Virus genome (UHGV): UHGV-0337120
From: a virus
Length of the DNA stretch: 23,305 bases
Reading direction: 5' to 3' (one strand)
The notes below the pieces were generated by a model. That model was given only the letters and a program-made list of their open reading frames with translations. It was not told where the DNA came from and did not search any database. The position numbers and the translations under genes were made by a program. Of this stretch, positions 1 through 17,660 are shown piece by piece; the first letter of the stretch is position 1; each line of letters begins with the position of its first letter.

Positions 1-666
1 GTCTTCTGCGCTGCCGCCACTCTGTGCCGCAATGAGCGCACCCTGCCGTTGCTCTTCAACAACAGGTGCAACCGCGCGACCGGCAGCATACAGACCGGCA
101 CTGCCAGCCGCCATGGCAACAGCACCGCGCTGACTGAGCTTACCGGCAATATCCTGAACACGGTCATAGCGTTGCTGCGCCTGCGTGACGCGTGCAAGCT
201 GGCCCCGCTGGCGTTCGAGCTGATCGTTGTATTCCTGCGTCCGCCTGATTGCCCTCTCGACCGCACGGTTACTTCCGTCCGCCCGTATACCGTGAGATTC
301 CAGTTCGCGACTGGCTTCGCTAAGTCGGGATTTGTGGAGGGAATAAACCGTATTAAGGCGATCAATCTTCACAGTCAGCGAGCGTATAGCTTCCTGCTGT
401 TTTTCCGTTAGTGTTGTGCCTGTACGCTGGGCCTCCTGGAGGCGCTGAAGTCGCGCACGCGCCTCGTTCAGACTGTTTTCAGTCGAGGTCACCTGCTGGC
501 GGGCACGGGAAAACGCATCACTGCTTCGCTGGAGTGACTTAAGAGCGTTCTGCGTGGAGGAAAGAGATTCGGAAAGCGCGCCGGTCATTTCCCGGGCGCG
601 CCTGACGGGTTGAGTGAGACGGTCGACCGCAGTAAGGGCTACACGTATCTGGAGATTATTACTCAT
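1..666 (-). CDS. T: Tail tape measure protein, N-terminal part (gene continues past the window start)
   Basis: Minus-strand ATG at 666-664, translation MSNNLQIRVALTAVDRLTQP... is coiled-coil and Q/R/A-rich as in tape measure proteins; sits directly after E/E' as in P2; its ATG overlaps the E' stop (GATGAGTAA). Not in the ORF track because it is open at the window edge. Confidence 0.7.
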   Translation of the reverse strand, partial: MSNNLQIRVALTAVDRLTQPVRRAREMTGALSESLSSTQNALKSLQRSSDAFSRARQQVTSTENSLNEARARLQRLQEAQRTGTTLTEKQQEAIRSLTVKIDRLNTVYSLHKSRLSEASRELESHGIRADGSNRAVERAIRRTQEYNDQLERQRGQLARVTQAQQRYDRVQDIAGKLSQRGAVAMAAGSAGLYAAGRAVAPVVEEQRQGALIAAQSGGSAED

Positions 667-1194
667 CGTTATGATTCCCGGTTCTGACGGCCGCCCGTTC
701 TCGCCAGGCAACCAGTTCACCGGGAGTCATCACAAAGATTTCAGAGGGCGACCAGTGAAATACAACGGCTATATCAGCGACAATATCTTCAACGTAATCA
801 AAAGCAAGAAGCGTTACGCGCCGCCCGCCTCCTGCGCCTTCTTCGCTGACGAGGGAAGCAAAAAACCGACTGCCACCTCGTACAGTTTAAAGAAGTCTTC
901 CGGGCACATTGACATAAGTGCCGCGCGGCTGAGGTGAGGTTCAGTTACGCGTTCCAGAAAAATGGCGGCAGCATCAACATCGGTGTTGAACAGGTCCGTC
1001 ATGCGGATCCCTCGAAGCGAGCCCACCTGACGCGCAAGCGCCCCAATCTTCACGCTGGAAACCGTCTTATTACCGCAGACAACAGGAACCCTGAGATTAA
1101 CCGTGTCATTTGCGATCGCCTCTGCGTTTTCCGTGTCGCCATTCGTCACAGCATCTGTGTCATTCGTCACGATATTTTCTTCAGTCTGATCCAT
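659..1194 (-). CDS. E': E+E' chaperone made by programmed -1 frameshift at TTTTTTG (plus 859-865)
   Basis: Hand translation: slipping -1 at T_TTT_TTG opens a 69-codon frame (FASLVSEEGAGGGRRVTLLAFDYVEDIVADIAVVFHWSPSEIFVMTPGELVAWRERAAVRTGNHNDE) ending at TAA 661-659, overlapping the T start codon. Same heptamer and layout as P2 E/E'. Confidence 0.55.
814..1194 (-). CDS. E: Tail assembly chaperone, gpE-like
   Basis: 126-aa ORF between tube gene and tape measure, P2 position of gene E; GGGAG-like RBS upstream; slippery TTTTTTG near its 3' end (plus 859-865). Confidence 0.7.
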   Translation of the reverse strand: MDQTEENIVTNDTDAVTNGDTENAEAIANDTVNLRVPVVCGNKTVSSVKIGALARQVGSLRGIRMTDLFNTDVDAAAIFLERVTEPHLSRAALMSMCPEDFFKLYEVAVGFLLPSSAKKAQEAGGA

Positions 1195-1245
1195 TATTTT
1201 TCTCCCGGGGCAACAGGACGCCGCCCCTGTTATCAGATTTAACTA

Positions 1246-1758
1246 TCAGCCAAGCCCCAGCATGGAGCGGGTGCGGTCAGAAAGAACATCCTTACCATCA
1301 ATGCGCCAGATGAAGTTCAGCACGTCGATTTCAATAACATCGCTGTTATCAACGCTGAGCTTGTACCAGGTGCATTTCATCGCATAGGTATGTTCGGTAT
1401 CTTCACCCTGTTTGGCCTCGCCCTTGTCGATTTCGACAATGCGACCACGGGCTTCAATATCGACGTACTCAATCCCTTCTTCGGAATAGTATTCACCCGA
1501 GAAGCGAACACGCACGGCATCAATACCGGCGGCGTATTTGGCAAAGATGTGACGATCGACGCCACCAACCGCAAAGGAGAGATCCAGTGCACCATCATCA
1601 AGACCGAGATCCACCGACGCAGAGCCAGGCATACCCGCCCCGCGATACGACTCTGTTTTGCGGGTCAGTTTTGGCGGGGTAAAAGACGTCACCTTGCCCA
1701 GCTTGTTGTCACCGTCCACAAAGACGGTAAACACACGAAGTTTTTTTGGTACGGCCAT
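1246..1758 (-). CDS. FII: Tail tube protein, gpFII-like
   Basis: 170-aa ORF immediately after sheath gene; start overlaps FI stop (TAATG); GGAGG RBS; size and position match P2 FII. Confidence 0.85.
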   Translation of the reverse strand: MAVPKKLRVFTVFVDGDNKLGKVTSFTPPKLTRKTESYRGAGMPGSASVDLGLDDGALDLSFAVGGVDRHIFAKYAAGIDAVRVRFSGEYYSEEGIEYVDIEARGRIVEIDKGEAKQGEDTEHTYAMKCTWYKLSVDNSDVIEIDVLNFIWRIDGKDVLSDRTRSMLGLG

Positions 1759-2951
1759 TAGCTACCTCCAAGAGATGCAAAAGCAGAGCCAAAGAACTCG
1801 TCGGTAAACGTCTGATAGAGTTCCATACATTCCATCGGTGGTACGGGCGTGTATTTGTAGCGAATACGCACAATGCCCTGACGAAGACTGGTTGTATTGT
1901 TGTCGACAATATCGAACCAGCATTCCGCCCCAATGAGTTTTCCGGCTGTCACCAGTGCATCCAGCTTTGCCTTGATAGCGCTCACGGCATCCTTAGCATT
2001 GGCAGGCGTAAGCGGTGAATCCACTATCTGAAGTTGCGCCTCCGCAATGGTGTCAGCCAGTTGCTGCGCCGTACGTGTGTACACCTCAAAGATGTACTCC
2101 GCAGTTTCCGGCGTACGGTTACCCCAGAAACGGAAGGAGCCGTCGCCCTGGTGAATAAGAGTGGTCACCTCGCTGTTGTTCAGCGTGTTGGCATCGCTGT
2201 TTTCATCCTGAAGTGACCAGGAAACAGACGCTGACACCCCAAGAACATTTTTCACAGGCATGTTAGAAAGGGAGCGATGCCAGCCCTGTTCATGGTCGAG
2301 TCGGGCACGAAGACCGCACGCATACGCCGCAGCCGGGAAGGTTTCGTTTTTACCGGACACCGGGTTGAACGCAATGAAATCAGGCCACAGAAGCATGATT
2401 TCGCGACCGGAAATCTTTTTACGGAACGCAATAGCATCGGACGGTTTTGTGCAGCCAGGGCAGCCGGAATACGCAAATGCGCGCATTTTTCCGGCAACAG
2501 TCACCAGTGCAGCCGTGACAGCATCCGATTCAAGGCCCGGAGCGGCAAGAATGCGGGGTCGGCAACCAATACCTTCCATCTGTTCGGCAACCAGAAGCGC
2601 CTGCATACCGCTGTAGCTTCCGTCTTCTTCCGTGGTACCAATGACCAGTTGATCCTGTGTTTTATTCTCAGCCCCCTCTTTTGCCGCCTCCACGCGAACG
2701 ACAATCACCCGTGTACTGACCTGGTCAGATATCGCTTTAAGGGCCTTATAAAGCGTGCCCGCTTTCCCGGCCTTCCCCAGAACAGAAGATACACGGGTAA
2801 TCAGCACTGGCTTGTTAAGGGGGAACTGCCCGGTATCCGCATCATCTGCAACGGCAACAATACCAATGACGCTGGAATCAACGTCATTAATGGCCGTCAC
2901 AAGGTCGGTATTCTCCGTGACGCGCACACCGTGAAATCGTTTTTCAGCCAT
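1758..2951 (-). CDS. FI: Contractile tail sheath protein, gpFI-like
   Basis: Contains FPLNKPVLIT, identical to a remembered P2 FI segment, plus further sheath-like blocks (RILAAPGL, WPDF, RFWGNRT, YTPVPP). Start placed at ATG 2951 (MAEKRFHGV, GGTGA RBS) rather than the track's ATG at 2963. Confidence 0.9.
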   Translation of the reverse strand: MAEKRFHGVRVTENTDLVTAINDVDSSVIGIVAVADDADTGQFPLNKPVLITRVSSVLGKAGKAGTLYKALKAISDQVSTRVIVVRVEAAKEGAENKTQDQLVIGTTEEDGSYSGMQALLVAEQMEGIGCRPRILAAPGLESDAVTAALVTVAGKMRAFAYSGCPGCTKPSDAIAFRKKISGREIMLLWPDFIAFNPVSGKNETFPAAAYACGLRARLDHEQGWHRSLSNMPVKNVLGVSASVSWSLQDENSDANTLNNSEVTTLIHQGDGSFRFWGNRTPETAEYIFEVYTRTAQQLADTIAEAQLQIVDSPLTPANAKDAVSAIKAKLDALVTAGKLIGAECWFDIVDNNTTSLRQGIVRIRYKYTPVPPMECMELYQTFTDEFFGSAFASLGGS

Positions 2952-3026
2952 ACGATTCACCATCAGTTGTGTTTATGCTCGCCTGAATAATCCACCATTG
3001 GCGCACAGCCATCACCTGATGCGGGC

Positions 3027-3044
3027 TGTGGGGATTTTTTTACA
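3027..3044. promoter_or_regulatory. TGT-N12-ACA dyad, candidate Ogr-type late activator site between divergent FI and D
   Basis: TGTggggatttttttACA read directly; centred about 55 nt upstream of plausible -10 elements in both directions (TGATAC near 3081 for D; GATTAT on the minus strand near 2986-2991 for FI). Confidence 0.4.
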
Positions 3045-3104
3045 ACAGAGCCAGACAGAAACGACAAGGTACGCGTGGGATGATACGCACACGGGAGGGA
3101 TATC

Positions 3105-4250
3105 ATGAGCATCACTGAATCAGTAACACATCACATCAACAGCGCACTGGATGCAGCGGAAGATACCGTTAGGGTGCCAGACTTCACTATCACACTGGAA
3201 GGGAAAGATGCCAGCCTGAAGAACATCACGCAGCGCATCATGAGCCTGACCATGACAGACAACAGGGGTTTTGAGGCTGACAGGGTGACACTGGAAATCG
3301 ACGACGCCGACGGCGGGGTGGTACTTCCGGAACGCGGAACACGATTATCGCTGGCGATGGGGTGGAAAGGTGAAAGCCTCACTCGCAAGGGGACGTTTGT
3401 GGTGGACGAAGTGAGCCACGAAGGTCCGCCGGATAAGCTGACCATATCCGCGAACAGTGCGGATTTTCGCGAAGAGTTTAACGTGAAACGCGAAGTCTCC
3501 TGGCATGACGTGACCGTTGAGCGTGTGGTATCTGCCATCGCGCACCGTTACGGACTGAAAGCACAAATCAGCGAAATGCTGATGAATATCGAAATCGACC
3601 ATGCAGACCAGACAGAGGAAAGCGACATCTCGTTCCTCACGCGTATGGCTGACATGCTGGGTGCAATAACCACCGTAAAAAACGGGAGCCTGCTGTTCAT
3701 TCTGCCGGGTGGCGGTGTGACAGCCAGCGGGCGCGCCCTCCCCTCATTCGCCCTGACCCGCTCGGATGGCGACAGTCATCGCTTTCGCATTGCTGACAGA
3801 AAAGCCTATACCGGAGTGAAAGCTTACTGGCTGGATTTAAAGTTCGGCCAGAAGAAGGCCGTGAACGTGAAAAAGCGAAACGCGAAAACCACACAGAAGC
3901 CGGAGAAAAGCAGTTCACGGGAGGGTGGATACATGGAAGGCGCAGAAGGCAATGTATATGTGCTGAGAAAAACCTACCCGAACGAAGAAGCCGCGCGTCG
4001 CGCAGCTGCCGCACGCTGGCAGCAACTTCAGCGGGGTGCAGCAGAATTCAGCATCACGCTGGCGCGCGGACGCGCCGACCTGTATCCGGAGATGCACGGC
4101 ACGGTATCCGGGTTCAAGAGCGATATTGACAATCAGGACTGGGTTATTTCGCGCATTGAGCACGTCATCGACGACAGCGGCTTCACCACCAGACTGGAGC
4201 TGGAAGCAAAAATCGCAGACTGGATAGCAGAGCGCGCCACAACTGGCTAG
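3105..4250 (+). CDS. D: Tail protein / late control protein gpD-like
   Basis: 381 aa; blocks FTITLEGKD, LTMTDNRGFEADRV, SWHD, FLTRMA, GGYMEGAEGNV, AAEFSITLARGRADLYPE, DWVISRIEHV, GFTTRLELE align to P2 gpD from memory; GGGAGGG RBS. Confidence 0.9.
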   Translation: MSITESVTHHINSALDAAEDTVRVPDFTITLEGKDASLKNITQRIMSLTMTDNRGFEADRVTLEIDDADGGVVLPERGTRLSLAMGWKGESLTRKGTFVVDEVSHEGPPDKLTISANSADFREEFNVKREVSWHDVTVERVVSAIAHRYGLKAQISEMLMNIEIDHADQTEESDISFLTRMADMLGAITTVKNGSLLFILPGGGVTASGRALPSFALTRSDGDSHRFRIADRKAYTGVKAYWLDLKFGQKKAVNVKKRNAKTTQKPEKSSSREGGYMEGAEGNVYVLRKTYPNEEAARRAAAARWQQLQRGAAEFSITLARGRADLYPEMHGTVSGFKSDIDNQDWVISRIEHVIDDSGFTTRLELEAKIADWIAERATTG

Positions 4251-4291
4251 AATGAGCGCGAGCCCACCCCGTTTCAGCCTGGGGGACCATC

Positions 4292-4594
4292 ATGCATCCT
4301 TGCCCATACTGCGGAGCAAGTACCCGCACCAGAACAAGCCGCGACGCCAACGATACAGGAACAATCAGGGAGAAATATTACCAGTGCAACAACATTGAAT
4401 GCAGCGCCACCTTTGTGACGCACGAGTTTGTCGTGAGAACCGTATGCCGTCCGCAACCCACCGAAGAACGGGGAGTCGTCCCCGCAGACGCTTTCAAATC
4501 ATGCCACCGGGGAAGGGATCAACTCAGCCTCCCCCTGGGCGATTGCGCCTCCCAGTCAAAAACTGTACATTACGCGCGGGTGCCTTTCGGCTGA
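4292..4594 (+). CDS. ogr: Ogr/Delta-family zinc-finger late transcription activator
   Basis: CPYC...QCNNIECSATF matches the Ogr C-x2-C...C-x4-C finger (P2 Ogr CPLC...QCQNVNCSATF); directly downstream of D as in P2. ORF is 100 aa, longer than P2 Ogr, so the C-terminal extent is uncertain. Confidence 0.8.
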   Translation: MHPCPYCGASTRTRTSRDANDTGTIREKYYQCNNIECSATFVTHEFVVRTVCRPQPTEERGVVPADAFKSCHRGRDQLSLPLGDCASQSKTVHYARVPFG

Positions 4595-4725
4595 CGGCTG
4601 GAAGGATTACCTGAAGGCCGGATGTGGAAAGGCCCCGAGTCAAACATATTGTTTAACCCGAGGCCCTGACCATCTAACCGTGACAAGTGGAAGGTTAGCG
4701 CCTCTTTGAAAAAGGAGCAAGCGCT

Positions 4726-4866
4726 ATGCCGCAAAAAACGATCATCGTGAGCATTTTATGCTTAACCATGTTGTTGACCGTCTGGATGATACACCGTTCA
4801 CCGTGTGAGTTCAGACTTAACATCATGTGGTCAGAATTTGCGGCGTTCTTGCAGTGTAAACAGTAA
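4726..4866 (+). CDS. hok: Hok/Gef-family type I toxin-like small membrane protein (46 aa)
   Basis: Hand translation MPQKTIIVSILCLTMLLTVWMIHRSPCEFRLNIMWSEFAAFLQCKQ. Shares the spacing CLT-x9-S-x-CE-x-R-x6-E-x-AAF with Hok (R1); GGAG RBS 8 nt upstream; structured 3' region with hairpin at 4875-4896 and terminator at 4961-4991. Too short to appear in the ORF track. Confidence 0.6.
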   Translation: MPQKTIIVSILCLTMLLTVWMIHRSPCEFRLNIMWSEFAAFLQCKQ

Positions 4867-4960
4867 GAAACCGCAGCGGGGGTGAAAGCCCCCGCTATCC
4901 GGTTGCCGAAGGTTCGGTCGAAAGTCGCACCCTCACACGCAAGTCACAAAGAAAAACAAA

Positions 4961-4991
4961 GCCCGCAGCGTAAAAACTGTGGGCTTTTTTT
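4961..4991 (+). terminator. Rho-independent terminator (8-bp stem with one G-U pair, then T7)
   Basis: gcccgcag-cgtaaaaa-ctgtgggc followed by ttttttt. Confidence 0.6.
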
Positions 4992-5061
4992 GTTTAACAA
5001 CCTGGCGGTGAAAACAACAAGCAGAGATAGTCTCACCAAAAAAATTTAGAACGCCATGGCA

Positions 5062-5251
5062 ATATGTGGACAACTCGAAAAATAATCCTTTATTTTTCAT
5101 TGCATTACATCAGTTTTCGCGCCACCCGAAGGTGGCATAAGGGGGTAGCACGTATCGCTATCCCCCTTTATATATCAAATGGTTACGAGTTCAAAGTAGT
5201 TCGGAATAGTGCCATTTAGTCCCCGTTTATGGGCAAAATCTGGACAACTCC
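5062..5251. other. Candidate attP region: two direct copies of AT-N-TGGACAACTC flanking a hairpin-rich core
   Basis: aTGTGGACAactcg at 5063-5076 and atcTGGACAactcc at 5238-5251; from memory the P2 Int arm-site consensus is TGTGGACA. Two hairpins at 5121-5166 lie between them. Position between ogr and int matches P2 attP. Confidence 0.35.
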
Positions 5252-6222
5252 GCAACCGGATTGAACCTTACCGCGTCCTGGAGATAATCAGGTGCAAAGT
5301 GCGCATAGGTCATTGTTTGCTGAATTGTGCTGTGCCCTAAAATACGCTGAAGGGTAATAATGTTCCCTCCATTTATCATGAAATGAGTTGCGAATGTGTG
5401 CCGTAAAACATGCACAGACTGACCGACTGGTAAATCAGGCCGCACAGTCCTTATTGCACTTCTGACTATCGCATAACTGGGGTTCATTAATCTTCCAGTC
5501 GCTTTGACTTTAATCAGAGATTCAAGATCTTTAGCTATAGGAATAACCCGCCGCGATCCATTCTTTGTCTCCATGAAAATAACCTTCCCACCAATTATGT
5601 GTTCACCTTTAATATTGGCAACTTCACCCCAGCGCCCGCCTGTAGCCAAGCTTAACAATACAGCCTTAAGATTATCGCCAGATAAAAGTGCGGTTAGCCT
5701 AGGAATATCATCATGTGCAAGATAAGCCATTTCCGGCTGATTAATTGTTAGCTTGCGTATCTCGTGAAACGGGTTATCACCCACAAACTCTTCAACATCA
5801 ATCAGCTTTTCAAAGAAACCGCTCATCATTGCACAATAACGATTTACCGTTGACTGCTTAATTCCGCGATTCATTAATTCAAGGCGATATCTGATAATAT
5901 TTTTTCGGGTTAAGTGGTCACTTCTGTTAATACCAAGCTCTTGCATATCACGAAGAACCGCTTCAATTCTGACCCGATTCATCGCGCCATAACGATGATT
6001 CTTACCGTGGTACACCCACCACAGTTCCAGAAGATCGCTTAACGCTTTACGTTCAATAGGTTTTTCGACCCAGTCCTTATCGTGATAATGCGTCAGAACA
6101 TGGCGTTCATACATCGCCGCTTCACCACGGGTAGGAAATCGCCGCCGAAATCTTCTTCCTTCAGATCCAGCAGGCCGCACGTCCACACAGTATTTGCCAT
6201 CAGCGAGCTTCTTAATCGACAT
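5227..6222 (-). CDS. int: Tyrosine integrase, P2 Int family
   Basis: N-terminus MSIKKLADGKYCVDVRPAG matches P2 Int MAIKKLDDGRYEVDIRP; C-terminal HVLRHTFATHFMINGGNIITLQRILGH...YAHFAPDYLQDA carries the catalytic R-H-R-Y region. Start set at the ATG giving MSIKK (6222), not the track's 6258. Confidence 0.92.
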   Translation of the reverse strand: MSIKKLADGKYCVDVRPAGSEGRRFRRRFPTRGEAAMYERHVLTHYHDKDWVEKPIERKALSDLLELWWVYHGKNHRYGAMNRVRIEAVLRDMQELGINRSDHLTRKNIIRYRLELMNRGIKQSTVNRYCAMMSGFFEKLIDVEEFVGDNPFHEIRKLTINQPEMAYLAHDDIPRLTALLSGDNLKAVLLSLATGGRWGEVANIKGEHIIGGKVIFMETKNGSRRVIPIAKDLESLIKVKATGRLMNPSYAIVRSAIRTVRPDLPVGQSVHVLRHTFATHFMINGGNIITLQRILGHSTIQQTMTYAHFAPDYLQDAVRFNPVAELSRFCP

Positions 6223-6288
6223 AAGGAAGCCCCCCAATGAAAACATCATCTTGATCACAATTTTGAGAAATAAAGGCCAGATGGACCG

Positions 6289-6582
6289 TTAACCAGTCTT
6301 CTTGCCGGAGTGGGGTGATTCCGATTCGCTTCGCCCAATGTGTGCGAGAGCCGGTACCACCTGCCCGACCTTTGGTTCGACCTCATCGAACAAAAACCAG
6401 TCGCGGTATTTAGAAAATCTCGGGTGCTTAAAAAGCTTGATAGTGATCTCAAGACCAGGAAGGTTACGACCATACTCATAACTGGTCAGAGCAGAGTAAG
6501 AAATCCCAATCATATCAGCGAACTCCCGTTGAGTGAGATCTTCAGATTTACGCATGACGCGAATTTTTTGAGGAATGTCCAT
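6289..6582 (-). CDS. C: Immunity repressor, P2 C-like
   Basis: 97 aa; MRKSE...PALAH...SPHSG.KTG aligns with P2 C from memory; AGGAG RBS; divergent from cox-like gene and upstream of int as in P2. Confidence 0.85.
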   Translation of the reverse strand: MDIPQKIRVMRKSEDLTQREFADMIGISYSALTSYEYGRNLPGLEITIKLFKHPRFSKYRDWFLFDEVEPKVGQVVPALAHIGRSESESPHSGKKTG

Positions 6583-6621
6583 TTGACAAACTCCTACATA
6601 TGTGTATTAATACCACATATG
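6583..6621. promoter_or_regulatory. Switch region: candidate early promoter (TTGACA-N17-ATTAAT) overlapped by an inverted repeat, candidate operator
   Basis: TTGACA at 6583-6588; CATATGTG (6597-6604) and CACATATG (6614-6621) form a perfect 8-bp inverted repeat around a TATTAATA-containing spacer. Confidence 0.4.
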
Positions 6622-6695
6622 AACATAAAAAGAAATGTTCTAAGTGGTTCCAACTAGTGCCAGATAGAAATAGCACCAATAACGGAGGATACCAG

Positions 6696-7121
6696 ATGCA
6701 AGAAGTCACTCAAAACGCGCCTGAATCGCCTGCCGAAACACAGTGCGATCAGTTGACAGATGCGCCAGAAACCGCACACCAAAAGACCGGGCGCAAAGCC
6801 CCTGAACGCCAAGAAATCAGGCTTTCACAAAACCCTTCTCATCTCCTGTCAAAAGAAGGGTTTGCGATGTATATCGGCAAGACCGTTAACGCCATCGTGA
6901 GCATGGCAAAAGCAGGGAAATTACCCGCTGTGTACATGGCGGACCCTCTCAAGCCTGGCGGAAACGCCGAACTTTACATCAACCGGAAAGCATGGGATGA
7001 AGCCTGCGATCGACTCACTGAAAACGCACCGCAAGAATGGCACGAATGGGAAAACCGACTTTTTTTATTTAAGCCAGCAGCTGGTTCACGGAATAAACGT
7101 ATCAGTAAAAAAGCAGCTTAA
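6696..7121 (+). CDS. cox: Cox-like excisionase / early repressor (HTH)
   Basis: Segment FAMYIGKTVNAIVSMAKAGKLPAVYMADP resembles P2 Cox FAKLIGKSTGAVRRMIDKGKLPVIDMTDP; GGAGGA RBS before ATG 6696. N-terminal 55 aa are low complexity, so true start is uncertain. Confidence 0.55.
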   Translation: MQEVTQNAPESPAETQCDQLTDAPETAHQKTGRKAPERQEIRLSQNPSHLLSKEGFAMYIGKTVNAIVSMAKAGKLPAVYMADPLKPGGNAELYINRKAWDEACDRLTENAPQEWHEWENRLFLFKPAAGSRNKRISKKAA

Positions 7122-7202
7122 TATCAAACACACAGCGAAATCCACAACAGGAGATTTCGCCGTAAATAATCTAATCGTTGGTGTTATGCGGGGGCGCAAC
7201 AA

Positions 7203-7640
7203 TCAACCAAGAAGACTTTTGAAAGCAAAGGATAACCCAGTAGTAAGAGCGGATGATGCGGTGCTTTTTATCGCGTCCATTGAGCCACTCTTGGCTGCAT
7301 CAACAAGCTTGTCGCCAAATGATTGTTTAAGTGACTCTGGATCAAGCTTAAGTAATTCAAGACCTTTGGCCGTGAGAACCGCATCAGAAAAGTAATGCGG
7401 AGGAGAAGATTTAGCGGATACATAACCAGCATCAACAAGCCATGCGATGGAGTCACGGCGAAGCTCAAGAGCTTCAACTAGTTGCCTCCTGGAGGATCGG
7501 TCTTCTTCAAAAGTCAGCTCTGAAACACCGGTTAAGGCACAAATATCAATAGTTACTTTGCGGGGAAAAGTTTCATAAAGAAACGCAAAAGTTTTACCAA
7601 CTGTTTCATTAAAAACATCAAGATTTGAAGGTGTTGACAT
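7203..7640 (-). CDS. Hypothetical protein, transcribed antisense to the early operon (cargo candidate)
   Basis: About 145-aa ORF filling the 500-bp gap between cox and the next plus-strand gene; GGAG RBS before ATG 7640; AT-richer than flanks; no motif recognised. Confidence 0.5.
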   Translation of the reverse strand: MSTPSNLDVFNETVGKTFAFLYETFPRKVTIDICALTGVSELTFEEDRSSRRQLVEALELRRDSIAWLVDAGYVSAKSSPPHYFSDAVLTAKGLELLKLDPESLKQSFGDKLVDAAKSGSMDAIKSTASSALTTGLSFAFKSLLG

Positions 7641-7833
7641 GACTGACTCCACTCAAACAAAAGACTTATACAGCGATTTACGATTCATCATCATACAACA
7701 GCAATCAGGCAGACTGGATCCAACACGTGCAAGCAAGGCCTGGAAAGAAGCACTTACCGATCAGGGGATCGATGTAATTAGCGAAGTCATGGCTGAAGTG
7801 ATTTTTAAGCTAACAAGAGACGAATCACTGTAA
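7639..7833 (+). CDS. Hypothetical small early protein
   Basis: 64 aa; GAAGGTG RBS 6 nt upstream; first gene of the packed plus-strand early operon. Confidence 0.4.
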   Translation: MTDSTQTKDLYSDLRFIIIQQQSGRLDPTRASKAWKEALTDQGIDVISEVMAEVIFKLTRDESL

Positions 7834-7858
7834 TCATCGCATAAGGACCGAGTGAAGA

Positions 7859-8197
7859 ATGAAGCAACAACGAAATGCACGCATCAATAACAACACCGAA
7901 CGCCACGTTGCACGCCAGCACTTCCGTAAAAATAGTGCGACCGTAACCACTGAAATCCATGTAACACCAGACGGTCACCCGGTAAAACAAACCGGCAAAC
8001 ACACCTGGGCGATTGGCGACACTGCCATCGTTATTCACAAAAGTTTTCGCAGTCCTGTTACTGGCAGATTTAATTTCACCCTGACTCGCGGGGATGATTA
8101 CTTCGGACAGGATTTCACATTTTTTGAAGCCTTAAGAACGGCAGACAGATTAATCAACGGCCTGTGTTTTCAATATCCGGGAAGTAAGTACCGATAA
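7859..8197 (+). CDS. Hypothetical early protein
   Basis: 112-aa ORF tightly packed in the early operon. Confidence 0.5.
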   Translation: MKQQRNARINNNTERHVARQHFRKNSATVTTEIHVTPDGHPVKQTGKHTWAIGDTAIVIHKSFRSPVTGRFNFTLTRGDDYFGQDFTFFEALRTADRLINGLCFQYPGSKYR

Positions 8198-8212
8198 ATA
8201 AAGGATTCAGTC

Positions 8213-8455
8213 ATGATCGAAGCCTACAAAATACTTATTAATAACGCGTTGCAGCGTTACCACTTTGAACTCGCAAACAGGGGCGTAACTAAGGATGAAA
8301 GCCTTCGTAACTCACTGCGCGGCGCAATTATGGGACTGTATAACTGCGCGCTGGGCAGCGATGACCGTGAAGCGCTGGAAGAATTAAAGTCGATTATGAC
8401 AGAACTGTTTGAAGGTGAAATTGTTGAGCCTTACTTCACAGGGGTGGCAGCATGA
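8213..8455 (+). CDS. Hypothetical early protein
   Basis: 80-aa ORF; stop overlaps the next start (ATGA). Confidence 0.5.
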   Translation: MIEAYKILINNALQRYHFELANRGVTKDESLRNSLRGAIMGLYNCALGSDDREALEELKSIMTELFEGEIVEPYFTGVAA

Positions 8456-8577
8456 TCATATTCCTTTCATGGCTAATTCTGATTATCTCCGTACTTATGG
8501 CAATCGGCATTATGCGAATTATCCACACACTGAAGGATATCGAATTATTCTTTACCGGCGATAAACGCCGTAAATAA
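8452..8577 (+). CDS. Small hydrophobic single-TM peptide (41 aa)
   Basis: MIIFLSWLILIISVLMAIGIMRIIHTLKDIELFFTGDKRRK; ATGA-coupled to upstream gene. Confidence 0.35.
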   Translation: MIIFLSWLILIISVLMAIGIMRIIHTLKDIELFFTGDKRRK

Positions 8578-8589
8578 AGCGAAAACGTT

Positions 8590-8685
8590 ATGAAGAATGT
8601 AAAAGCAATACTCACCATTGCCAGTGTGTGGCTGATATTTCAGGTGTGTGCGCTTATCTGGTTAGCCCTGAAGATCTGGGAATAA
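8590..8685 (+). CDS. Small hydrophobic single-TM peptide (31 aa)
   Basis: MKNVKAILTIASVWLIFQVCALIWLALKIWE; weak RBS. Confidence 0.3.
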   Translation: MKNVKAILTIASVWLIFQVCALIWLALKIWE

Positions 8686-8790
8686 CCTTAAGCTTCAAAT
8701 AAGAACGCAATAACACCAGAAAACATACGAACAATTAATTAAGGCATTCATGCCATCGGGTTCCCTTTGTCTTTTTTCAGGAGTCAACAA

Positions 8791-9024
8791 ATGAGAACAG
8801 CCGAATCACCCGGCAGAGAAATAGCCGCCAGACCAGCTAACCATCATGCACATATCAGCATGGCCGCAAGAAAAGCCGAGCGTGCGCATATCTGCGAATT
8901 GCTGCGTGACCTGGTTGACACAGCGAGAGAGAAGCACACCTCCCCGGAGGAAACCTGCTCATCCATTGAACGACTGATTGCAACGCTCACGAACAACGCC
9001 GAACAGAAGGAGTGCACACAGTGA
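8791..9024 (+). CDS. Hypothetical early protein
   Basis: 77 aa from ATG 8791 with CAGGAG RBS (track starts earlier at a non-ATG codon). Confidence 0.45.
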   Translation: MRTAESPGREIAARPANHHAHISMAARKAERAHICELLRDLVDTAREKHTSPEETCSSIERLIATLTNNAEQKECTQ

Positions 9025-9602
9025 ACCATCTCATGATCGACACCGAAACATTGGGTACCGGACCGGACGCAGTCATATTCGCGATTGGCGCGGTGTTTTT
9101 CGACCCGTTCACCGGAAAGCTGGGCAAACAGTTTGAGAAACTCATCGACCCGGTGGATTCAGAACGCAACGGTGGAACCGTCAATGCAGCCACCGCTGTA
9201 TGGTGGGCCGGACAATCCGTGGAGGCCAGATCCTGCCTGCGCAACGCAGATGGAACAGAGCTGGCAGCAGTGACCGAATTTCTGGCGTTCATTTCACGCA
9301 ATATGCATGACGAAAGCCCGGGCAATTCACTGAACATATGGTGTAAGGGCGCATCCTTCGATTTCCCGATCCTGAAATCCGCCATAACACGCACAGCCGG
9401 AGAAAAAAGCATCCCCTGGTGCTACTGGAACGAGCGCTGTATGCGCCCGCTTATCGCCATGGCTGAATCAACTGGATGGAAAATGCCAGGCAGATCAGGA
9501 AAAGAGGCCATTGCTCACACCGCGCTGGGCGACGCCATTTACCAGGCAAAGGTCGTGTCAGAAATCTGGCAGCGCTTCACAACACCATTCCTGAACATAT
9601 GA
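9012..9602 (+). CDS. DEDDh-family 3'-5' exonuclease (DnaQ-like)
   Basis: Exo I motif IDTETLG and Exo III motif HTALGDAIYQA read directly. True start probably GTG 9021 or ATG 9033. Confidence 0.7.
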   Translation: MHTVNHLMIDTETLGTGPDAVIFAIGAVFFDPFTGKLGKQFEKLIDPVDSERNGGTVNAATAVWWAGQSVEARSCLRNADGTELAAVTEFLAFISRNMHDESPGNSLNIWCKGASFDFPILKSAITRTAGEKSIPWCYWNERCMRPLIAMAESTGWKMPGRSGKEAIAHTALGDAIYQAKVVSEIWQRFTTPFLNI

Positions 9603-9611
9603 GGTGAAGCC

Positions 9612-9839
9612 ATGGTCGCCATCCTGAATGTGTGTTGCTGCCCCCCCCTGAACGTGGAAAGAAAAGCCCGCGCATCGCTGCGTTTATTCCGCGACGGCGT
9701 GCGGAATTTTTCACGCATAAAACCCCACGACTACCTGGTAATAAGAATCGGTTTCCGCTGGCGATTACTGAGCAAAAACAACGGGGCGTCATGGGATTTA
9801 TTAACGCACGAAACCTATAACAAAGAGGCCGCGTTATGA
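9612..9839 (+). CDS. Small basic Cys-rich ORF containing a C8 tract; stop overlaps dam start
   Basis: GAGGTGA RBS before ATG 9612; C8 homopolymer at 9641-9648 inside codons 10-13; TGA overlaps the dam ATG (TTATGAGC). Coding status uncertain. Confidence 0.3.
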   Translation: MVAILNVCCCPPLNVERKARASLRLFRDGVRNFSRIKPHDYLVIRIGFRWRLLSKNNGASWDLLTHETYNKEAAL

Positions 9840-10816
9840 GCAAAGAACTGTTATCCGGTACGCCACTGAAATGGGTGGGCGGAAAAAGCCGCATCATGAA
9901 CACACTGAAGGCGCACCTGCCAGAAGCCGACTGTCTGGTTGAGCCGTTCGTGGGCGGCGCATCGGTATTCATGAACACCAGTTACAAGCGTTACATCCTG
10001 GGTGATTCCAATGGTGCGCTGATTAATTTCTACCGGCAAGCCAGGGACAACACCGACAGCCTGATCGACGAGGCGAAAACCCTGTTCCTGAACCACAACA
10101 ACAGGGGTGACTATCTCATCATTCGCGAAACCTTTAACGCAGAGAATCATGCCTTCCTGAACAGCAGAACGGGAATAAGCGACCGCCGTGAACTGCGACT
10201 GGCCGCCATGTTTTTGTACCTGAACCGACACAGCTTTAACGGTTTGTTCCGCGTGAACGGAAAAGGCGATTTTAACGTGCCTTTCGGCTGCTACCGCAAG
10301 CCCTACTTCCCTGAGCGTGAAATCCGCGCATTTGCAGACAAGGCAAACAGCACCCGAACGCTGCTTATCCACGCAGATTTTAAGGATACGCTGAACTCTG
10401 CCAGTCACCTGTTCGGCATGGGCAACACGCTTTGCGTGTACTGCGATCCCCCTTACCTGCAATTCAGTGGCCGGGACAATTTTACCGCCTACGGAAAACC
10501 ATTCGATGAAGACGAGCACGTTCGTCTGAGGGCAGCGCTTGACCGCCTTTCACAGGAAACGGGCGGCATGACCAGCATCACCATCTCCAATTCCGACACA
10601 CCGGAAACCAGACGCATTTATCAGGGTTACCGGATGAACACCATCCTGGCACCACGAAGCGTTGGCGCAAGAACCCGGGAATCAGCACCGGAGGTTATCG
10701 CCACCCTGAGACAGTGCGACGCCTGCGGTCGCCATGGCGGTGGCTACTGCCCGGACTGCGGACCTGTAACGGAAGATGCAACTTACAGCGCGATGTTAAT
10801 CACCGCCAGTACGTAA
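9836..10816 (+). CDS. dam: DNA adenine methyltransferase (Dam family) with Cys-rich C-terminal extension
   Basis: LKWVGGK, CLVEPFVGGASVF (SAM binding), FLYLNR, NVPFG.YRKPYFPE and catalytic DPPY align with E. coli Dam from memory; C-terminus has CDACGRHGGGYCPDCG. Confidence 0.92.
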   Translation: MSKELLSGTPLKWVGGKSRIMNTLKAHLPEADCLVEPFVGGASVFMNTSYKRYILGDSNGALINFYRQARDNTDSLIDEAKTLFLNHNNRGDYLIIRETFNAENHAFLNSRTGISDRRELRLAAMFLYLNRHSFNGLFRVNGKGDFNVPFGCYRKPYFPEREIRAFADKANSTRTLLIHADFKDTLNSASHLFGMGNTLCVYCDPPYLQFSGRDNFTAYGKPFDEDEHVRLRAALDRLSQETGGMTSITISNSDTPETRRIYQGYRMNTILAPRSVGARTRESAPEVIATLRQCDACGRHGGGYCPDCGPVTEDATYSAMLITAST

Positions 10817-10850
10817 ACAACCAGTAAATCAGTAACACCGGAGTCAGGAA

Positions 10851-11087
10851 ATGAATAGCGAAAACAACAAAGAGCTTTTGCGGGAATTGCGTCTCATCGC
10901 CCGTGCACACGAGGAAGCAGCAAAAGTTGCCGCAGCTGCTGGAAGACCAGAGCTCGTTATCACTTCAGCAATCTCACTGAGGATCACCATGGAAGCAATT
11001 CAGGTAATTCAGGATCAGGAAAGTGAAATCGCCACCCTTAAAAAGCAGCTCAACGAGAAATCTGCCGGGCAAAGGAGTCAGCAATGA
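10851..11087 (+). CDS. Hypothetical small protein
   Basis: 78-aa ORF, helical/charged, stop overlaps next start. Confidence 0.4.
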   Translation: MNSENNKELLRELRLIARAHEEAAKVAAAAGRPELVITSAISLRITMEAIQVIQDQESEIATLKKQLNEKSAGQRSQQ

Positions 11088-11302
11088 TCCAGGAATCAAC
11101 CGTTATCAGATTCACAGCCAACGGCCGTCAGTACGAGGTAGACGAAAGCCTGATTGACCAGGGCATGACACGCCAGGACTCACGCAATTCTGAGATGCAT
11201 CACATCCGCCTTATCAACGGTTCGCACTTCTGCGCCACGAACATGGAAGAAGTACGCGTGCTGACAGCAACACGCAATACGGGAGGTAAAGCATGGCAGT
11301 GA
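11084..11302 (+). CDS. Hypothetical small protein
   Basis: 72-aa ORF in operon. Confidence 0.4.
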   Translation: MIQESTVIRFTANGRQYEVDESLIDQGMTRQDSRNSEMHHIRLINGSHFCATNMEEVRVLTATRNTGGKAWQ

Positions 11303-11655
11303 TTTATATCGCCGGTCCAATGACCGGATACAAAGATCACAACAGAACGGCGTTTTTCACAGAGGCGATGAGGCTCGCGGCAGACGGGCACGTTGTGCTG
11401 AACCCTGCCACGTTGCCGGAAGGATTAAGCCAGCAGCAGTACATGAGCATTTGTATTCCGATGCTCATGTGTGCCGATGTCATTTACTTGCTGGAAGGCT
11501 GGGAGGATTCAGCTGGCGCGCGGGCGGAGTACGCAATGGCACTCAAGCTGAACATAGACGTGTCATTACCGCCTGTCAGGGAAGACGGTAAAAGCATCAC
11601 GCAGCCGGGAGTCGATCAGACGCCGCACAACCAGCAGATTAACCTTTCGGAGTAA
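11293..11655 (+). CDS. Nucleoside 2-deoxyribosyltransferase-like protein (DUF4406-like)
   Basis: N-terminal VIYIAGPMTGY...N...F...A..L...GHVVLNP pattern typical of the NDT-like fold, recalled from memory. Confidence 0.5.
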   Translation: MAVIYIAGPMTGYKDHNRTAFFTEAMRLAADGHVVLNPATLPEGLSQQQYMSICIPMLMCADVIYLLEGWEDSAGARAEYAMALKLNIDVSLPPVREDGKSITQPGVDQTPHNQQINLSE

Positions 11656-12083
11656 CGCAAATGCTCGCTGGCAGACAGACCAACAGATGCGCTCGCTTTG
11701 TTTTTTGCGGGCCTGACAAACGCCTTCATGGATGCGCTGTTCGTTTCTTCCAGATACAGAATGCGCTCAATCAGGCGTTCAGTGCTCATGAAATCCCTTT
11801 GCGTAATCAGACGAAGGTAGCTCTGTTTCTGCCAGCACGCCAGTTCGGCGACGAATTCACACTTGCTGCAAAACCAGGAAAAAACAAAAAATGCCAGTCC
11901 GCAAAGACTCATCAGGACGGGGAAACCTACGAGAAGAAAGGACAATACCGCAGCAATCAGCGCCCCGGCGCGCAACATGGCAGCGGCTTTATTGCTGAGT
12001 ATGAAAACCATCTCTTCCAGCCAATAGCTGTACCACAGATGAAAAAAAATCTTCTTGTCTGCTTGCTCCATAGTAACAGGCAT
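11616..12083 (-). CDS. Two-TM membrane protein, antisense to early operon (cargo candidate)
   Basis: ATG 12083 with GGAGG RBS 7 nt upstream; hydrophobic helices AMLRAGALIAAVLSFLLVGFPVLM and LCGLAFFVFSWFC, then a soluble C-terminal domain; 3' end overlaps the convergent upstream gene by 40 nt. Confidence 0.55.
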   Translation of the reverse strand: MPVTMEQADKKIFFHLWYSYWLEEMVFILSNKAAAMLRAGALIAAVLSFLLVGFPVLMSLCGLAFFVFSWFCSKCEFVAELACWQKQSYLRLITQRDFMSTERLIERILYLEETNSASMKAFVRPAKNKASASVGLSASEHLRYSERLICWLCGV

Positions 12084-12469
12084 AAACAACCTCCATTGTT
12101 AATAAACGCCGCTATCCCTCGGCGCATTCCATTTTTGCGCCGCGATTATACATACTTCAGCACGCAACACAAAAACCGCTTGCCAGCGCTCGTCGTGTCA
12201 GGTTACATTTCCGCTGCACCTCATAAAACGGGTGCCGGGATTTCCACCCCGCTGACAAACGAAGCGCACAGCCGCGCCAGCGGTTTTTTTGTGCGTACTG
12301 TATCGCCACGTCTTTTTCGCGTCAGAATTATGGCGGGGCGTACAGGGCCGACTTCGGTCGGGCCGGTTTCTTCGTTTGCCGGTTGTGGAAACCCTGTACG
12401 TCTCGCCACCCTGAGTTTTCCACCTCTGGTTGGTGAGTTTTCAAAATTCACAAACGAAGAGGCCACACC

Positions 12470-12691
12470 ATGGCAAACCGCAAGCAACAGCGCGCCCGCG
12501 CTGAGCGTCTTCACATCCGCAGCGAAATCAACCGCAGACTCCATCGGGCTGCATCTGTCGCCTTTATCATGCAGTCAAACGTATTACACCGACTTAACGA
12601 CGGTATCGCTGCCGGGTATTACGCGGCAGTCTTCAGCTATCTCGCCGAAGATCTGGCAGAACTACAAAGCCTCATCAACCAGCACCGATAA
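12470..12691 (+). CDS. Hypothetical protein (P2 orf82/83-region equivalent)
   Basis: 73 aa; GAAGAGG RBS; follows a 370-bp ORF-free structured region. Confidence 0.45.
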   Translation: MANRKQQRARAERLHIRSEINRRLHRAASVAFIMQSNVLHRLNDGIAAGYYAAVFSYLAEDLAELQSLINQHR

Positions 12692-12759
12692 ACCACATCC
12701 GGAAGCTATCCCACACCTGCACGCGGGAGGCTTCCGCACATCTGTTACCGGAGGTTCTC

Positions 12760-13176
12760 ATGAAGAGCGTTAAGGGGCTTTCAGATATTCAGGACTTTTT
12801 TAACTGGATGTGGGCGGTGGATCCCCTGCTGGCTTCCCGCCTGAACAACTGGCACGACTATTACCGCCGCGCCTGTAAACAGGCTGCCCGCAGCGTCACC
12901 ACATACGGGGATTTCTCCTTCACCGTGGACGGTCGTTACCGCGTGGACGTGAAAGGTGATGGTGATGGACTGGGTTTATTTCACATCAACGGCACCGACA
13001 GTACCGCCATCAGCTGGTCGTCATCAGAGATGGCGCTGGTTCTGGAAATGACAACCCACAGCGTGGCCGTGAAAGGTATATACACCGCAGAAGGTTTTAT
13101 CGGCGAATACCAGCGCCTTCTCGTGCTGTACCGCGCGGCGTTTCAGGTGGCAACTGCCGGGGAGTACGACGCATGA
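12760..13176 (+). CDS. Hypothetical protein upstream of A
   Basis: 138 aa; GGAGG RBS; stop overlaps A start (ATGA). Confidence 0.5.
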   Translation: MKSVKGLSDIQDFFNWMWAVDPLLASRLNNWHDYYRRACKQAARSVTTYGDFSFTVDGRYRVDVKGDGDGLGLFHINGTDSTAISWSSSEMALVLEMTTHSVAVKGIYTAEGFIGEYQRLLVLYRAAFQVATAGEYDA

Positions 13177-15686
13177 GTGACCGCAATGCACAGCTGGCGT
13201 ACCCGTGGAACGCACCGCTACCGGTTATCGATCCTGAAACGTTCGGCAGAGCACAACCAACCGCATTACGCCAGGCCATTCAGAGCTACATCAACGAGGA
13301 CATTCGCATTGATGCCAGACTGGATGAAGAAACCGTCTCCTTCCTGACAAACACAGACGAAGGCAAGCGAATTAATTCGCACCTTCACCACGACGAAGAG
13401 CGTCGGATCAGACTGGAAAAACTGGCGCGGCACAAACGCGAAAATCCGCCCACACTGGTATCTGAAGCCATGGCAGAGCTGCGCGCCCTGCCGCCGTTTC
13501 TTGCCAGTCCGCTCATCCGGGACCTGGCTCGCCTGAGCCGCAAACAGGAGAGCGCACGCCGGGAAGGGCTTAAGAATAACAGCGCATATGCGGCGGATAA
13601 CTTCGTTCGTCATGGGCTGCGTGCCCGCCTGAAACGTATCGCCCGTGTGAATGAACGCTTTGCCACCCCGGCCTTTAAGGCCACCGCCGCCCGCGAACGG
13701 CTGGATGAACTGCTTATACTGCCGCAGCTGAGCCGTGACGAAATCCAGCGCCTTGCCACCCTGACCGCCACCGCGTTTTCCGCCGCACTGGAGCGCGCAT
13801 GTGATGAGATCATCGAAAAGACCGGCAGGGGTGACGATGACCTGTTCACCTGGTTACTGACCTACCAGTCACTGGCACACATGGCGTTAAAACTGGGTAT
13901 CACGCCACCCTGCTGGCCGTCGCTGGAAATCAGGCCAGACCGCCGCACCGCCCCCAACCCGGAACGGGTGCCGGGTGCGGTCATGCGCCTTTCCTGTGCG
14001 ACATGGTGGAACAGTCAGTTAAGACACCTCCGGGACATCTGGCGTGAAGAGCTGTTACGCGCCGCAGGTCTGGTGTCACGTAAGACATCGGTATATATCA
14101 GCCATGAAGCGTTACTGGACTGGCGCGAAAAACGCCAGCGCACCCGCGATTTTCTGAAGGCCTGGGACATCGAGAACGAAGAGGGAGAACGGTTCAGCCT
14201 TGAGGATATCTACTGGGCAGGTCTCTCTAATCCGCGTAACCGCCGTAACGAGATGATGACCTGCGCCCGGGGAATGGAGCAGGTCGCCGAAGCACGCGGC
14301 GATGTGGCGTTTTTCGTCACCGTCACAGCCCCTTCCCGTTTTCACAGCGTGAACGATGACGGCAGTCTGAACCCGAAATACTGCGGGGCAACGGTACGCG
14401 ATGCCAGTGATTATCTGGTTTACCGCTTTTTCGCCGCCGTCCGCAGGGCCATCGACAAGGCCGGGCTGGGCTGGTACGGCGTGCGCACAGTGGAGCCCCA
14501 CCACGACGGTACACCGCACTGGCACATGCTGGTATTCACCAGCCAGGAAAACGAAGCCCGTATCACTGAAATCATGCGCAACGCCGCCATCAGGGAGGAC
14601 CGCGCAGAGCTGGGTGATGATATCTCCCCGCGTTTTAAATGCGAAAAAATCGACCCGGCAAAAGGCACACCGACAAGCTATATCGCGACCTATATCGGTA
14701 AGAACCTGGACGCCAGCGCCTTCATGGGAAATGACCCGAAAACCGGCAAACCTTACGTCGATAAGGAATCAGGCAAAACCATGGCCGAAACCGTGGAGAA
14801 CGCCATCGGCTGGGCAGGCCTTCACCGCATCCACCAGTTCCAGTTCTTCGGTATCCCGCCCCGCCAGGTATGGCGCGAACTCCGCAGCCTTGCCGGGCAG
14901 ATGGCCCGTAACCCGACTGCCCCACAGCGTCTGGACCATGACGACATTGACGCCATACTGGCCGCCGCCGACGTGGGATGTTTTGCCACCTATATCACCC
15001 GCCAGGGTGGTGTGCTCATTCCCCGCAACACGTACCTGGTCCGCACCGCATACGAAACTGCCGAAGAGGCCAACGACTACGGCGAATTCCCGCAACGCAT
15101 TTACGGCGTCCGCGCCCCGTTACTCGGGGAGCGCTACACCATATGCACCCACCCGGACACCTGGAAACTGGTCAGACGTAAGCCGGAAAACGAAGACCGC
15201 ACGGACGAGGGTTTTGACGTTGAGTGCGGCTTTGCCGCACCTTGGACTCGTGGCAATAACTGTCCCCATGATGAAAAAACAGACACCGGAGAGGGTAAAA
15301 CCCCACCACCGGAAGCCAGGAAAGAACAAAAACTGGTCGTCCCGGGAGGTGATTTGGGTGAGTGGTTAAGGTCACTGACCCCCACAAAGCGAAAACAACT
15401 CACCAGGCAGCTGAAAGATGCGACATCTGACACAAAAACCGTGAAAACCGGCAGCCCCACCACGCCCGATGACGTCATACATGTGCGTACAGCATTGCCG
15501 CTGACTGACGTCACCACCACCGTAATCAAGTCGGCACTGAGCGCGACGGGCGAGGAGCTACACAGTGGCGCAGCACTTTCCGTACACAGAGGTGCACGCG
15601 TTCGCCTGCCTGACGGGCGGATTGTGCACTGGGATGAGAAATCACGAAGCCTGGTGGCAGCAGATCAACCGGAGGTGAACCCATGA
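13173..15686 (+). CDS. A: Rolling-circle replication initiator, gpA-like
   Basis: 837 aa; VEPHHDGTPHWHMLVF matches P2 A VEPHHDGTPHWHMMLF (HUH-type metal motif); downstream GYIAKYISKN-like SYIATYIGKN also conserved. Confidence 0.92.
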   Translation: MSDRNAQLAYPWNAPLPVIDPETFGRAQPTALRQAIQSYINEDIRIDARLDEETVSFLTNTDEGKRINSHLHHDEERRIRLEKLARHKRENPPTLVSEAMAELRALPPFLASPLIRDLARLSRKQESARREGLKNNSAYAADNFVRHGLRARLKRIARVNERFATPAFKATAARERLDELLILPQLSRDEIQRLATLTATAFSAALERACDEIIEKTGRGDDDLFTWLLTYQSLAHMALKLGITPPCWPSLEIRPDRRTAPNPERVPGAVMRLSCATWWNSQLRHLRDIWREELLRAAGLVSRKTSVYISHEALLDWREKRQRTRDFLKAWDIENEEGERFSLEDIYWAGLSNPRNRRNEMMTCARGMEQVAEARGDVAFFVTVTAPSRFHSVNDDGSLNPKYCGATVRDASDYLVYRFFAAVRRAIDKAGLGWYGVRTVEPHHDGTPHWHMLVFTSQENEARITEIMRNAAIREDRAELGDDISPRFKCEKIDPAKGTPTSYIATYIGKNLDASAFMGNDPKTGKPYVDKESGKTMAETVENAIGWAGLHRIHQFQFFGIPPRQVWRELRSLAGQMARNPTAPQRLDHDDIDAILAAADVGCFATYITRQGGVLIPRNTYLVRTAYETAEEANDYGEFPQRIYGVRAPLLGERYTICTHPDTWKLVRRKPENEDRTDEGFDVECGFAAPWTRGNNCPHDEKTDTGEGKTPPPEARKEQKLVVPGGDLGEWLRSLTPTKRKQLTRQLKDATSDTKTVKTGSPTTPDDVIHVRTALPLTDVTTTVIKSALSATGEELHSGAALSVHRGARVRLPDGRIVHWDEKSRSLVAADQPEVNP

Positions 15687-16087: not shown

Positions 16088-16135
16088 CAAAAGACCATGA
16101 ACATGACCAGAAACAGCAAACCGAAGGAGCACACC

Positions 16136-16641: not shown

Positions 16642-16673
16642 CCCCAACAATAAAACCAACACGGGAGACAAAT

Positions 16674-16991: not shown

Positions 16992-17001
16992 CTTCACGCA
17001 T

Positions 17002-17547: not shown

Positions 17548-17660
17548 AAGTTAAATAAGGATATGAGTAATTTTTCACAGTTCTCACCCGGCAATACACC
17601 ACTGATTCAGACAGATGATTATCATCACCACCCACCCCCAAAAATCGCAAGATAAAAAAT

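Follow-up and report, generated by a model that had tools for sequence, protein, structure and literature searches.

Gene content of the tail region

The stretch of DNA analysed here, UHGV virus genome UHGV-0337120 (23,305 nucleotides; hereafter the window), comes from a P2-related (Peduoviridae) temperate phage of Escherichia coli and has its letters in vegetative order. At its left end the tail genes FI, FII, E/E' and T lie on the minus strand, head to head with the plus-strand pair D and ogr, and a single palindromic candidate site for the late activator Ogr is located in the gap between FI and D. Gene identities were assigned from the open reading frame (ORF) listing with translations and from PHROG and Pfam scans. 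These scans agree with the calls for T, E/E', FII, FI, D and ogr made in a preliminary description of the sequence, and the ORFs and translations agree with the opposite strands that it reported for T to FI and for D-ogr. The genes of the region are as follows.

1-666, minus strand: 5' part of T (tape measure), first 222 codons, the rest past the left edge; PHROG 28, tail length tape measure, E 2.9e-30
Ending at the stop at 659-661, minus strand: E', the -1 frame extension of E, from frame analysis
814-1194, minus strand: E, tail assembly chaperone; PHROG 103, tail protein, 1.5e-23, and a weak match to Pfam Phage_TAC_7
865 to 859, minus strand: slippery heptamer T_TTT_TTG for E/E', P2-type
1246-1758, minus strand: FII, tail tube; Pfam Phage_tube, 1.8e-49
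1758-2951, minus strand: FI, tail sheath, longest ORF to 2963; PHROG 23, tail sheath, 4.2e-113, and Pfam Phage_sheath_1
3105-4250, plus strand: D, tail/baseplate hub ("late control D"); PHROG 52, 6.5e-153, and Pfam Phage_GPD
4292-4594, plus strand: ogr/Delta zinc-finger late activator gene, 100 aa; Pfam Ogr_Delta, 9.9e-16

The ATG of T at 666 overlaps the end of E'. The FI start, ATG 2951, is conserved, with MAEKRFHGV in the window aligning with MSETRFHG in relatives, and is also the start given in RefSeq. The intergenic distance between FI and D, previously put at 140 bp, is 141 bp if the longest FI ORF is taken and 153 bp if FI begins at the conserved start. The block described earlier as inverted (FI, FII, E/E' and T) is correct for those genes but incomplete, as U, which had not been listed, belongs to it too. 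U is missing from the window only because it sits past the left edge; the E. coli prophage of strain JNEC-KY204, which is 99.9% identical, has a full T gene of 2.8 kb with U after it on the same strand. The inverted block is FI-FII-E-E'-T-U. The makeup of a P2-like tail module is present, with FI next to FII, E and the E+E' frameshift followed by T, then U and D, and ogr after D. The co-directional FI-FII-E-E'-T-U-D operon of P2 and 186 is not found in the window.

The ogr product is longer than that of P2 (72 aa) and has a C-terminal extension of ~35 residues. Its zinc-finger spacing is CX2C-X24-CX4C, compared with the CX2CX22CX4C quoted for P2 Ogr.

Distribution of the head-to-head arrangement

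Sixteen complete E. coli chromosomes, each assembled independently, contain the 4.7-kb region in colinear form, with identities of 89-99.9%. In the JNEC-KY204 prophage, head genes, lysis genes, the tail genes R to H and a fibre-assembly gene are followed by U, T, E, FII and FI, all pointing left, and by D, ogr and hok, pointing right towards host ytfP. Among phage records, leftward U, T, E', E, FII and FI next to rightward D and ogr are annotated in P88 and 520873 (Xuanwuvirus) and in phiT5282H (Novemvirus), and the same U-to-FI, D-ogr order is found in ST16-OXA48phi5.4 (Reipivirus) and 3LV2017 (Reginaelenavirus). The inversion is thus already present in published, annotated genomes, five records in four genera classified by the International Committee on Taxonomy of Viruses (ICTV). 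A literature search, which took in the P88 paper and a 2026 survey of P2-like viruses, retrieved no paper that describes the inversion or its consequence for promoters, a weak absence given the thin coverage of subscription journals.

A cross-species scan, in which the D protein was searched against one genome per bacterial species and the hits were examined by local tblastn with FI, FII, T, U, D and ogr, gave two groups of loci having both FI and D. In 13 loci the block is inverted and D is 62–76% identical to that of the window; in 59 loci the genes are co-directional and D is 44–52% identical. All 13 assessable close relatives from other Enterobacterales species are inverted; they belong to Edwardsiella, Citrobacter youngae, Salmonella, Trabulsiella, Brenneria, two Klebsiella, Serratia, Chania, Rouxiella, Pantoea, Symbiopectobacterium and a record labelled Vagococcus. 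Within E. coli, a single colinear match to the P88-type junction between FI and D was obtained in 1,109 of the 5,426 complete genomes, about a fifth. Co-directional FI-to-D order is found in P2, Dagavirus, Kapieceevirus, phiCTX, Burkholderia AP3 and in Mannheimia, Shewanella and Aeromonas phages, and its retention by these more distant P2-like phages indicates that it represents the ancestral state.

That the head-to-head layout is typical of a clade is virtually certain. The preliminary description treated the inversion as a novelty and offered, as another possibility, a recombination or assembly junction. The comparison with related phages removes the novelty, because the inversion is lineage-wide and is the normal order in P88, in the allied genera and in the E. 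coli genomes counted above; the identical adjacency in the 16 complete chromosomes speaks against a junction of the second kind. Because a whole clade of accepted Peduoviridae is without the co-directional FI-to-D order, that order does not define the family.

Two of the records deserve comment. In Escherichia phage 520873 the sheath gene is split by an insertion of IS100 (IS21 family; 4676-7820) and D is annotated in three pieces (7977-9074); the record is probably a defective prophage, yet the same FI–D gap is retained. The locus labelled Vagococcus is nearly identical to P88 and lies on a 226-kb contig titled Vagococcus sp. WN89Y, a Gram-positive organism, which likely reflects contamination or mislabelling.

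Candidate activator dyad and predicted promoter elements

The FI–D gap contains a candidate activator site flanked on both sides by predicted -10 elements, and a second dyad occupies the other divergent late-gene gap of the window.

2992 to 2987, minus strand: predicted -10 GATTAT of the FI (PF-type) late promoter, starting 43.5 bp from the dyad centre; predicted transcript start ~2980
3027-3044, both strands: candidate Ogr-type late-activator site TGT-N12-ACA, palindromic, centre 3035.5, exact match TGTGGGGATTTTTTTACA; putatively common to the FI and D promoters
3076-3084, plus strand: predicted extended -10 TG-n-GATGAT of the D-ogr promoter, with TG at 3076-3077 and the hexamer at 3079-3084, 43.5 bp from the dyad centre
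20982-20999, both strands: second TGT-N12-ACA dyad, in the divergent P–O gap, counterpart of the shared activator site of the P2 promoters PP and PO

The single dyad reported earlier at 3027-3044 is indeed the sole TGT-N12-ACA match in the gap. The whole window holds six such matches against 5.7 expected by chance, so that the count alone is uninformative and the weight rests on placement and conservation. The window has just two gaps between divergent late genes, FI–D and P–O, amounting together to ~1% of the sequence, and each holds one of the six matches. Exactly one T(G/C)T-N12-ACA is present, at the same place, in the gap of every one of 19 inverted loci. In an alignment of 14 non-redundant diverged gaps (65% mean column identity), no or almost no variation is seen in the T.T and ACAA of the dyad, in the A and T of either hexamer or in the TG that precedes the D-side hexamer, whereas the N12 spacer varies.

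The spacing of the elements is symmetric. On the FI side a NAnnnT hexamer begins 43.5 bp from the dyad centre in 18 of the 19 inverted loci and at 44.5 bp in the remaining one. The hexamer on the D side is found at 43.5 bp, or at 44.5 bp in three loci, and is preceded by TG in all but one (18/19). In the P–O gap of the window, NAnnnT hexamers likewise lie 43.5–44.5 bp on either side of the dyad. The distance from the dyad centre to the FI ATG is 84.5 bp, and that to the D ATG is looser, 66.5–71.5 bp across the 19 loci. A promoter scan detected no canonical -35/-10 promoter in the FI–D gap. From the position of the -10 element, the D-ogr transcript is predicted to start at ~3091, 14 nt before the D ATG.

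The left border of the inverted block is marked by a perfect 9-bp GC-rich hairpin in the 35-bp convergent gap between the fibre-assembly gene and U (JNEC-KY204 prophage locus 17332-17353, just left of the window), which the scan called as an intrinsic terminator on both strands. This hairpin is probably the common end of the V-to-G and FI-to-U operons. Since a bidirectional terminator blocks read-through from upstream, D must be transcribed from the gap.

A T run in the dyad spacer, together with an upstream hairpin (3005-3030), was also considered as an intrinsic terminator. The candidate was rejected: its fold is no stronger than that of shuffled sequences (z-score -1.64), relatives do not conserve the T run, and the terminator scan made no call.

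Origin of the inversion

Neighbour-joining trees were built for one protein encoded outside the inverted block (D) and one encoded inside it (FI). In both trees the inverted genomes form one bipartition, with 50/50 bootstraps in each. This pattern fits a single old inversion of FI-U that was fixed and inherited. According to this scenario, the segment comprising the PF promoter and FI-FII-E-E'-T-U would have been inverted once, in the ancestor of the P88-like clade and its allied genera, and then fixed. Through this event PF, together with its palindromic Ogr site, would have come to adjoin D in divergent orientation, D being at that point severed from its operon. Residues 1–24 of D (3105-3176) cannot be aligned to P2 gpD (residues 1–14), and from residue 25 on the two proteins are 48% identical. 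The mismatch is consistent with an old breakpoint at the U/D overlap, through which D may have acquired a new 5' end and ribosome-binding site. Inverted repeats at the block boundaries, as relics of a site-specific inversion, were sought without success: among the 17 pairs found, none has arms at both boundaries.

Other origins of the arrangement are far less plausible. Phage genomes are mosaic, and T is far more divergent among clade members (31–48% identity) than FI or D, so that several independent origins, or horizontal replacement of the tail module in place of one inversion, might be envisaged. Such a history is very unlikely, because genes outside and inside the block yield the identical single bipartition and because the gaps are homologous over their full length. 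The block might also be an active switch flipped by a site-specific invertase, with the window showing one of its two states; P88 and 520873 do carry a DNA invertase gene beside U, in a tail-fibre switching cassette. This explanation is hardly credible, given that the block has no flanking inverted repeats, that all 20 clade loci have one orientation, that the window lineage has no invertase at that position, and that the opposite orientation would strip FI of its conserved promoter-to-gene arrangement. With no flanking inverted repeats and one orientation throughout the clade, the rearrangement is fixed and not a switch. An assembly chimera, or a recent recombination peculiar to this sequence, has nothing in its favour besides the contrast with P2, and its probability is close to nil: the junction recurs in the 16 independently assembled chromosomes, in the 13 loci of other species, in the five phage records of four genera and, as the P88 type, in the 1,109 E. 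coli genomes, and the gap can be aligned end to end across relatives.

A probable shared activator site for divergent late promoters

The preliminary description proposed that the dyad is positioned to serve both directions and that a genuine in-place inversion gave D its own late promoter. The inversion relative to P2 is real, and -10-like hexamers do stand at equal offset on each side of the dyad, so that comparison gives good support to the dyad serving both directions; Ogr binding, the transcript starts and the dependence of the D promoter on Ogr are the parts that we infer from sequence. Taken as a whole, it is probable that one Ogr site drives divergent FI-to-U and D-ogr promoters, following a single clade-wide inversion. 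The FI side is very probably an Ogr-dependent promoter, and a D-side promoter that shares its activator site is somewhat favoured. Ogr bound to the site centred at 3035.5 would activate the leftward promoter (-10 GATTAT, start ~2980) for transcription of FI to U, and from the same site it would activate the rightward promoter (TG-n-GATGAT, start ~3091) for transcription of D-ogr. After the ancestral inversion, a newly evolved D-ogr promoter may have co-opted the palindromic activator site that already served FI. Because the activator site is palindromic, a -10 element at the mirror distance would have sufficed for D-ogr transcription.

Several observations weigh against this arrangement. The left half-site is TCT instead of TGT in many relatives, although imperfect sites are also found in P2 (TGT-N12-CCA). 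As the gaps are homologous, their conservation does not count as separate evidence at each locus. In the JNEC-KY204 prophage, the gap ahead of the R-S-V-to-G tail operon has no TGT-N12-ACA, only a TGT-N14-ACA, and the motif rule therefore does not cover every late operon. (This gap, upstream of R-S-V-W-J-I-H, corresponds to positions 11288-11459 of the prophage locus and lies outside the window.) Further, the predicted D leader is only ~14 nt long, and the extended -10 on the D side is of a type able to work without an activator, so that D-ogr may be independent of Ogr, partly or wholly.

The last point leads to the principal alternative, in which an extended -10 promoter that needs no activator, present in the gap by chance, transcribes D-ogr and leaves the dyad to the FI (ancestral PF) promoter alone. 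For promoters of this class neither a -35 element nor an activator is indispensable. The retention of TG two bases upstream of the D-side hexamer would be explained in this way, and early or constitutive ogr expression is biologically expected, as ogr of P2 has its own non-late promoter. However, the D-side hexamers are weak (GATGAT, GACCAT, AACCAT and GATCCT), and their distance from the dyad centre is fixed at 43.5–44.5 bp in 19/19 loci even as the distance to the D ATG varies. This distance equals that of the mapped P2 promoters PP, PO and PF. These points speak against an activator-independent D promoter, which we regard as unlikely.

If the shared-site arrangement holds, ogr would be under direct positive feedback, in which Ogr acts on the D promoter (P_D) to express D-ogr; in P2 such feedback operates only via read-through of the long F operon. 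The literature search returned no paper describing a bidirectional promoter for D-ogr or feedback from Ogr on P_D. A co-opted promoter in the style of PP/PO, serving the D hub gene together with its own late activator in a clade carried by ~20% of E. coli genomes, is somewhat more probable than not.

Other features of the window

Beyond ogr the window continues with hok/gef, attP, int, C, cox, the early genes and A, followed by the leftward pair Q and P and the rightward pair O and N. The JNEC-KY204 prophage ends on the right with D, ogr, hok and attR by ytfP, a segment matched by positions 1 to ~5136; its left end (int onward) is matched by positions 5120-23305. The 17-bp overlap of the two prophage ends is the att core, which shows that the window has the excised (vegetative) order and not the prophage order; attP is crossed at 5120-5136 (context 4860-5230).

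Between ogr and attP lies an ORF for a 46-aa Hok/Gef-family toxin (4726-4866, plus strand; Pfam HOK_GEF, 1.9e-6), and P88 has a hok/MokW-like gene at the matching position. A terminator-like hairpin follows the ORF at 4958-4987. The early region includes three plus-strand ORFs with no Pfam match, at 11661-12773 (370 aa), 12760-13176 (138 aa) and 15683-16087 (134 aa). Their neighbours are a Dam-type D12 methyltransferase (9836-10816), DUF4406 (11293-11655), the GPA replication protein (13173-15686), a weakly MarR-like ORF (16234-16641) and SSB (16674-16991). The JNEC-KY204 prophage additionally has a 1,971-bp DUF6645 gene and a DUF1378 gene between its lysis and tail genes.

Implications

A head-to-head FI–D junction in a P2-like prophage marks a common clade and warrants no flag for misassembly or new rearrangement. 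The practical value of this result lies in the annotation and triage of P2-like prophages. An inversion that severs D from its operon would be tolerated because a palindromic activator site can be reused in the opposite direction. The locus thereby appears to repeat an architecture that P2 already uses for P and O, and it offers a clean, testable case of promoter co-option. The understanding of P2-type late control is unchanged by the architecture of the gap; the proposed sharing of the site would be a small addition of a known kind.

Comparison with P88-like phages and with P2

The window is closest to the P88-like phages. Its gene order is identical to that of the relatives in Xuanwuvirus (P88), Novemvirus, Reipivirus and Reginaelenavirus, whose FI–D gaps are homologous to that of the window, measure 145–157 bp, and contain one T(G/C)T-N12-ACA with mirror-image -10 elements. 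Both P88 and the window have a hok/gef gene after ogr. P88 differs in its TCT left half-site and in a tail-fibre invertase cassette that is absent from the window lineage. The likeness to these phages is confined to the protein level (D 68–73%, FI 63–73% and T 31–39% identity): megablast of window positions 1-4700 against 50,697 phage records gave no match, and the relatives were found by protein comparison, the best D match being 72.5%. The window shares the head-to-head FI–D layout with its homologous ~150-bp gap and groups with these phages in both the D and the FI tree, and the megablast and D protein results do not reach the nucleotide-level similarity needed for placement in a named genus such as Xuanwuvirus. 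By gap homology and tree position, it is a member of the P88-like clade that falls within none of the sampled genera.

The P2 F operon, in which PF drives FI, FII, E, E', T, U and D with read-through into ogr, has the same gene set and E/E' heptamer as the window, and the activator site stands at a similar distance from the FI start codon (82.5 bp in P2 and 84.5 bp in the window). The seven genes are co-directional in P2 and D overlaps the end of U, whereas FI-U is inverted in the window. The window D also differs from P2 D in its N-terminus (~24 residues) and has its own ribosome-binding site and promoter region.

The closest known counterpart of the FI–D gap is the PP/PO region of P2. Late promoters of the P2 type have a dyad centred ~55 bp ahead of the transcript start and depend on the activator and on its contact with the alpha subunit of RNA polymerase. 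The P2 GenBank record annotates one "activator binding site; pO, pP promoters" at 3057-3087; the annotated transcript starts are 3016 on the minus strand for P and 3127 on the plus strand for O. The P2 site, TGT-N12-CCA, is centred at 3071.5, and both starts are 55.5 bp away from it; 43.5 bp separate the centre from the first base of either -10 hexamer (TAGCCT and GAAACT), and at PF the value for the hexamer GAAAAT is 44.5 bp. For phage Smp131, too, the P and O promoters have been attributed to a single palindrome, in a paper that restates the TGT-N12-ACA consensus and the Ogr dependence of the P2 late operons (PMC3931495). The PP/PO region and the FI–D gap thus have in common one palindromic site between divergent late operons, with -10 elements at 43.5 bp and no -35 elements, and the predicted starts of the window at ~2980 and ~3091 are the equivalents of the P2 starts, 55.5 bp to either side. 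Unlike PP/PO, the site in the window fronts FI and D instead of P and O, its transcript starts are predictions, and its D side carries a conserved TG extended -10.

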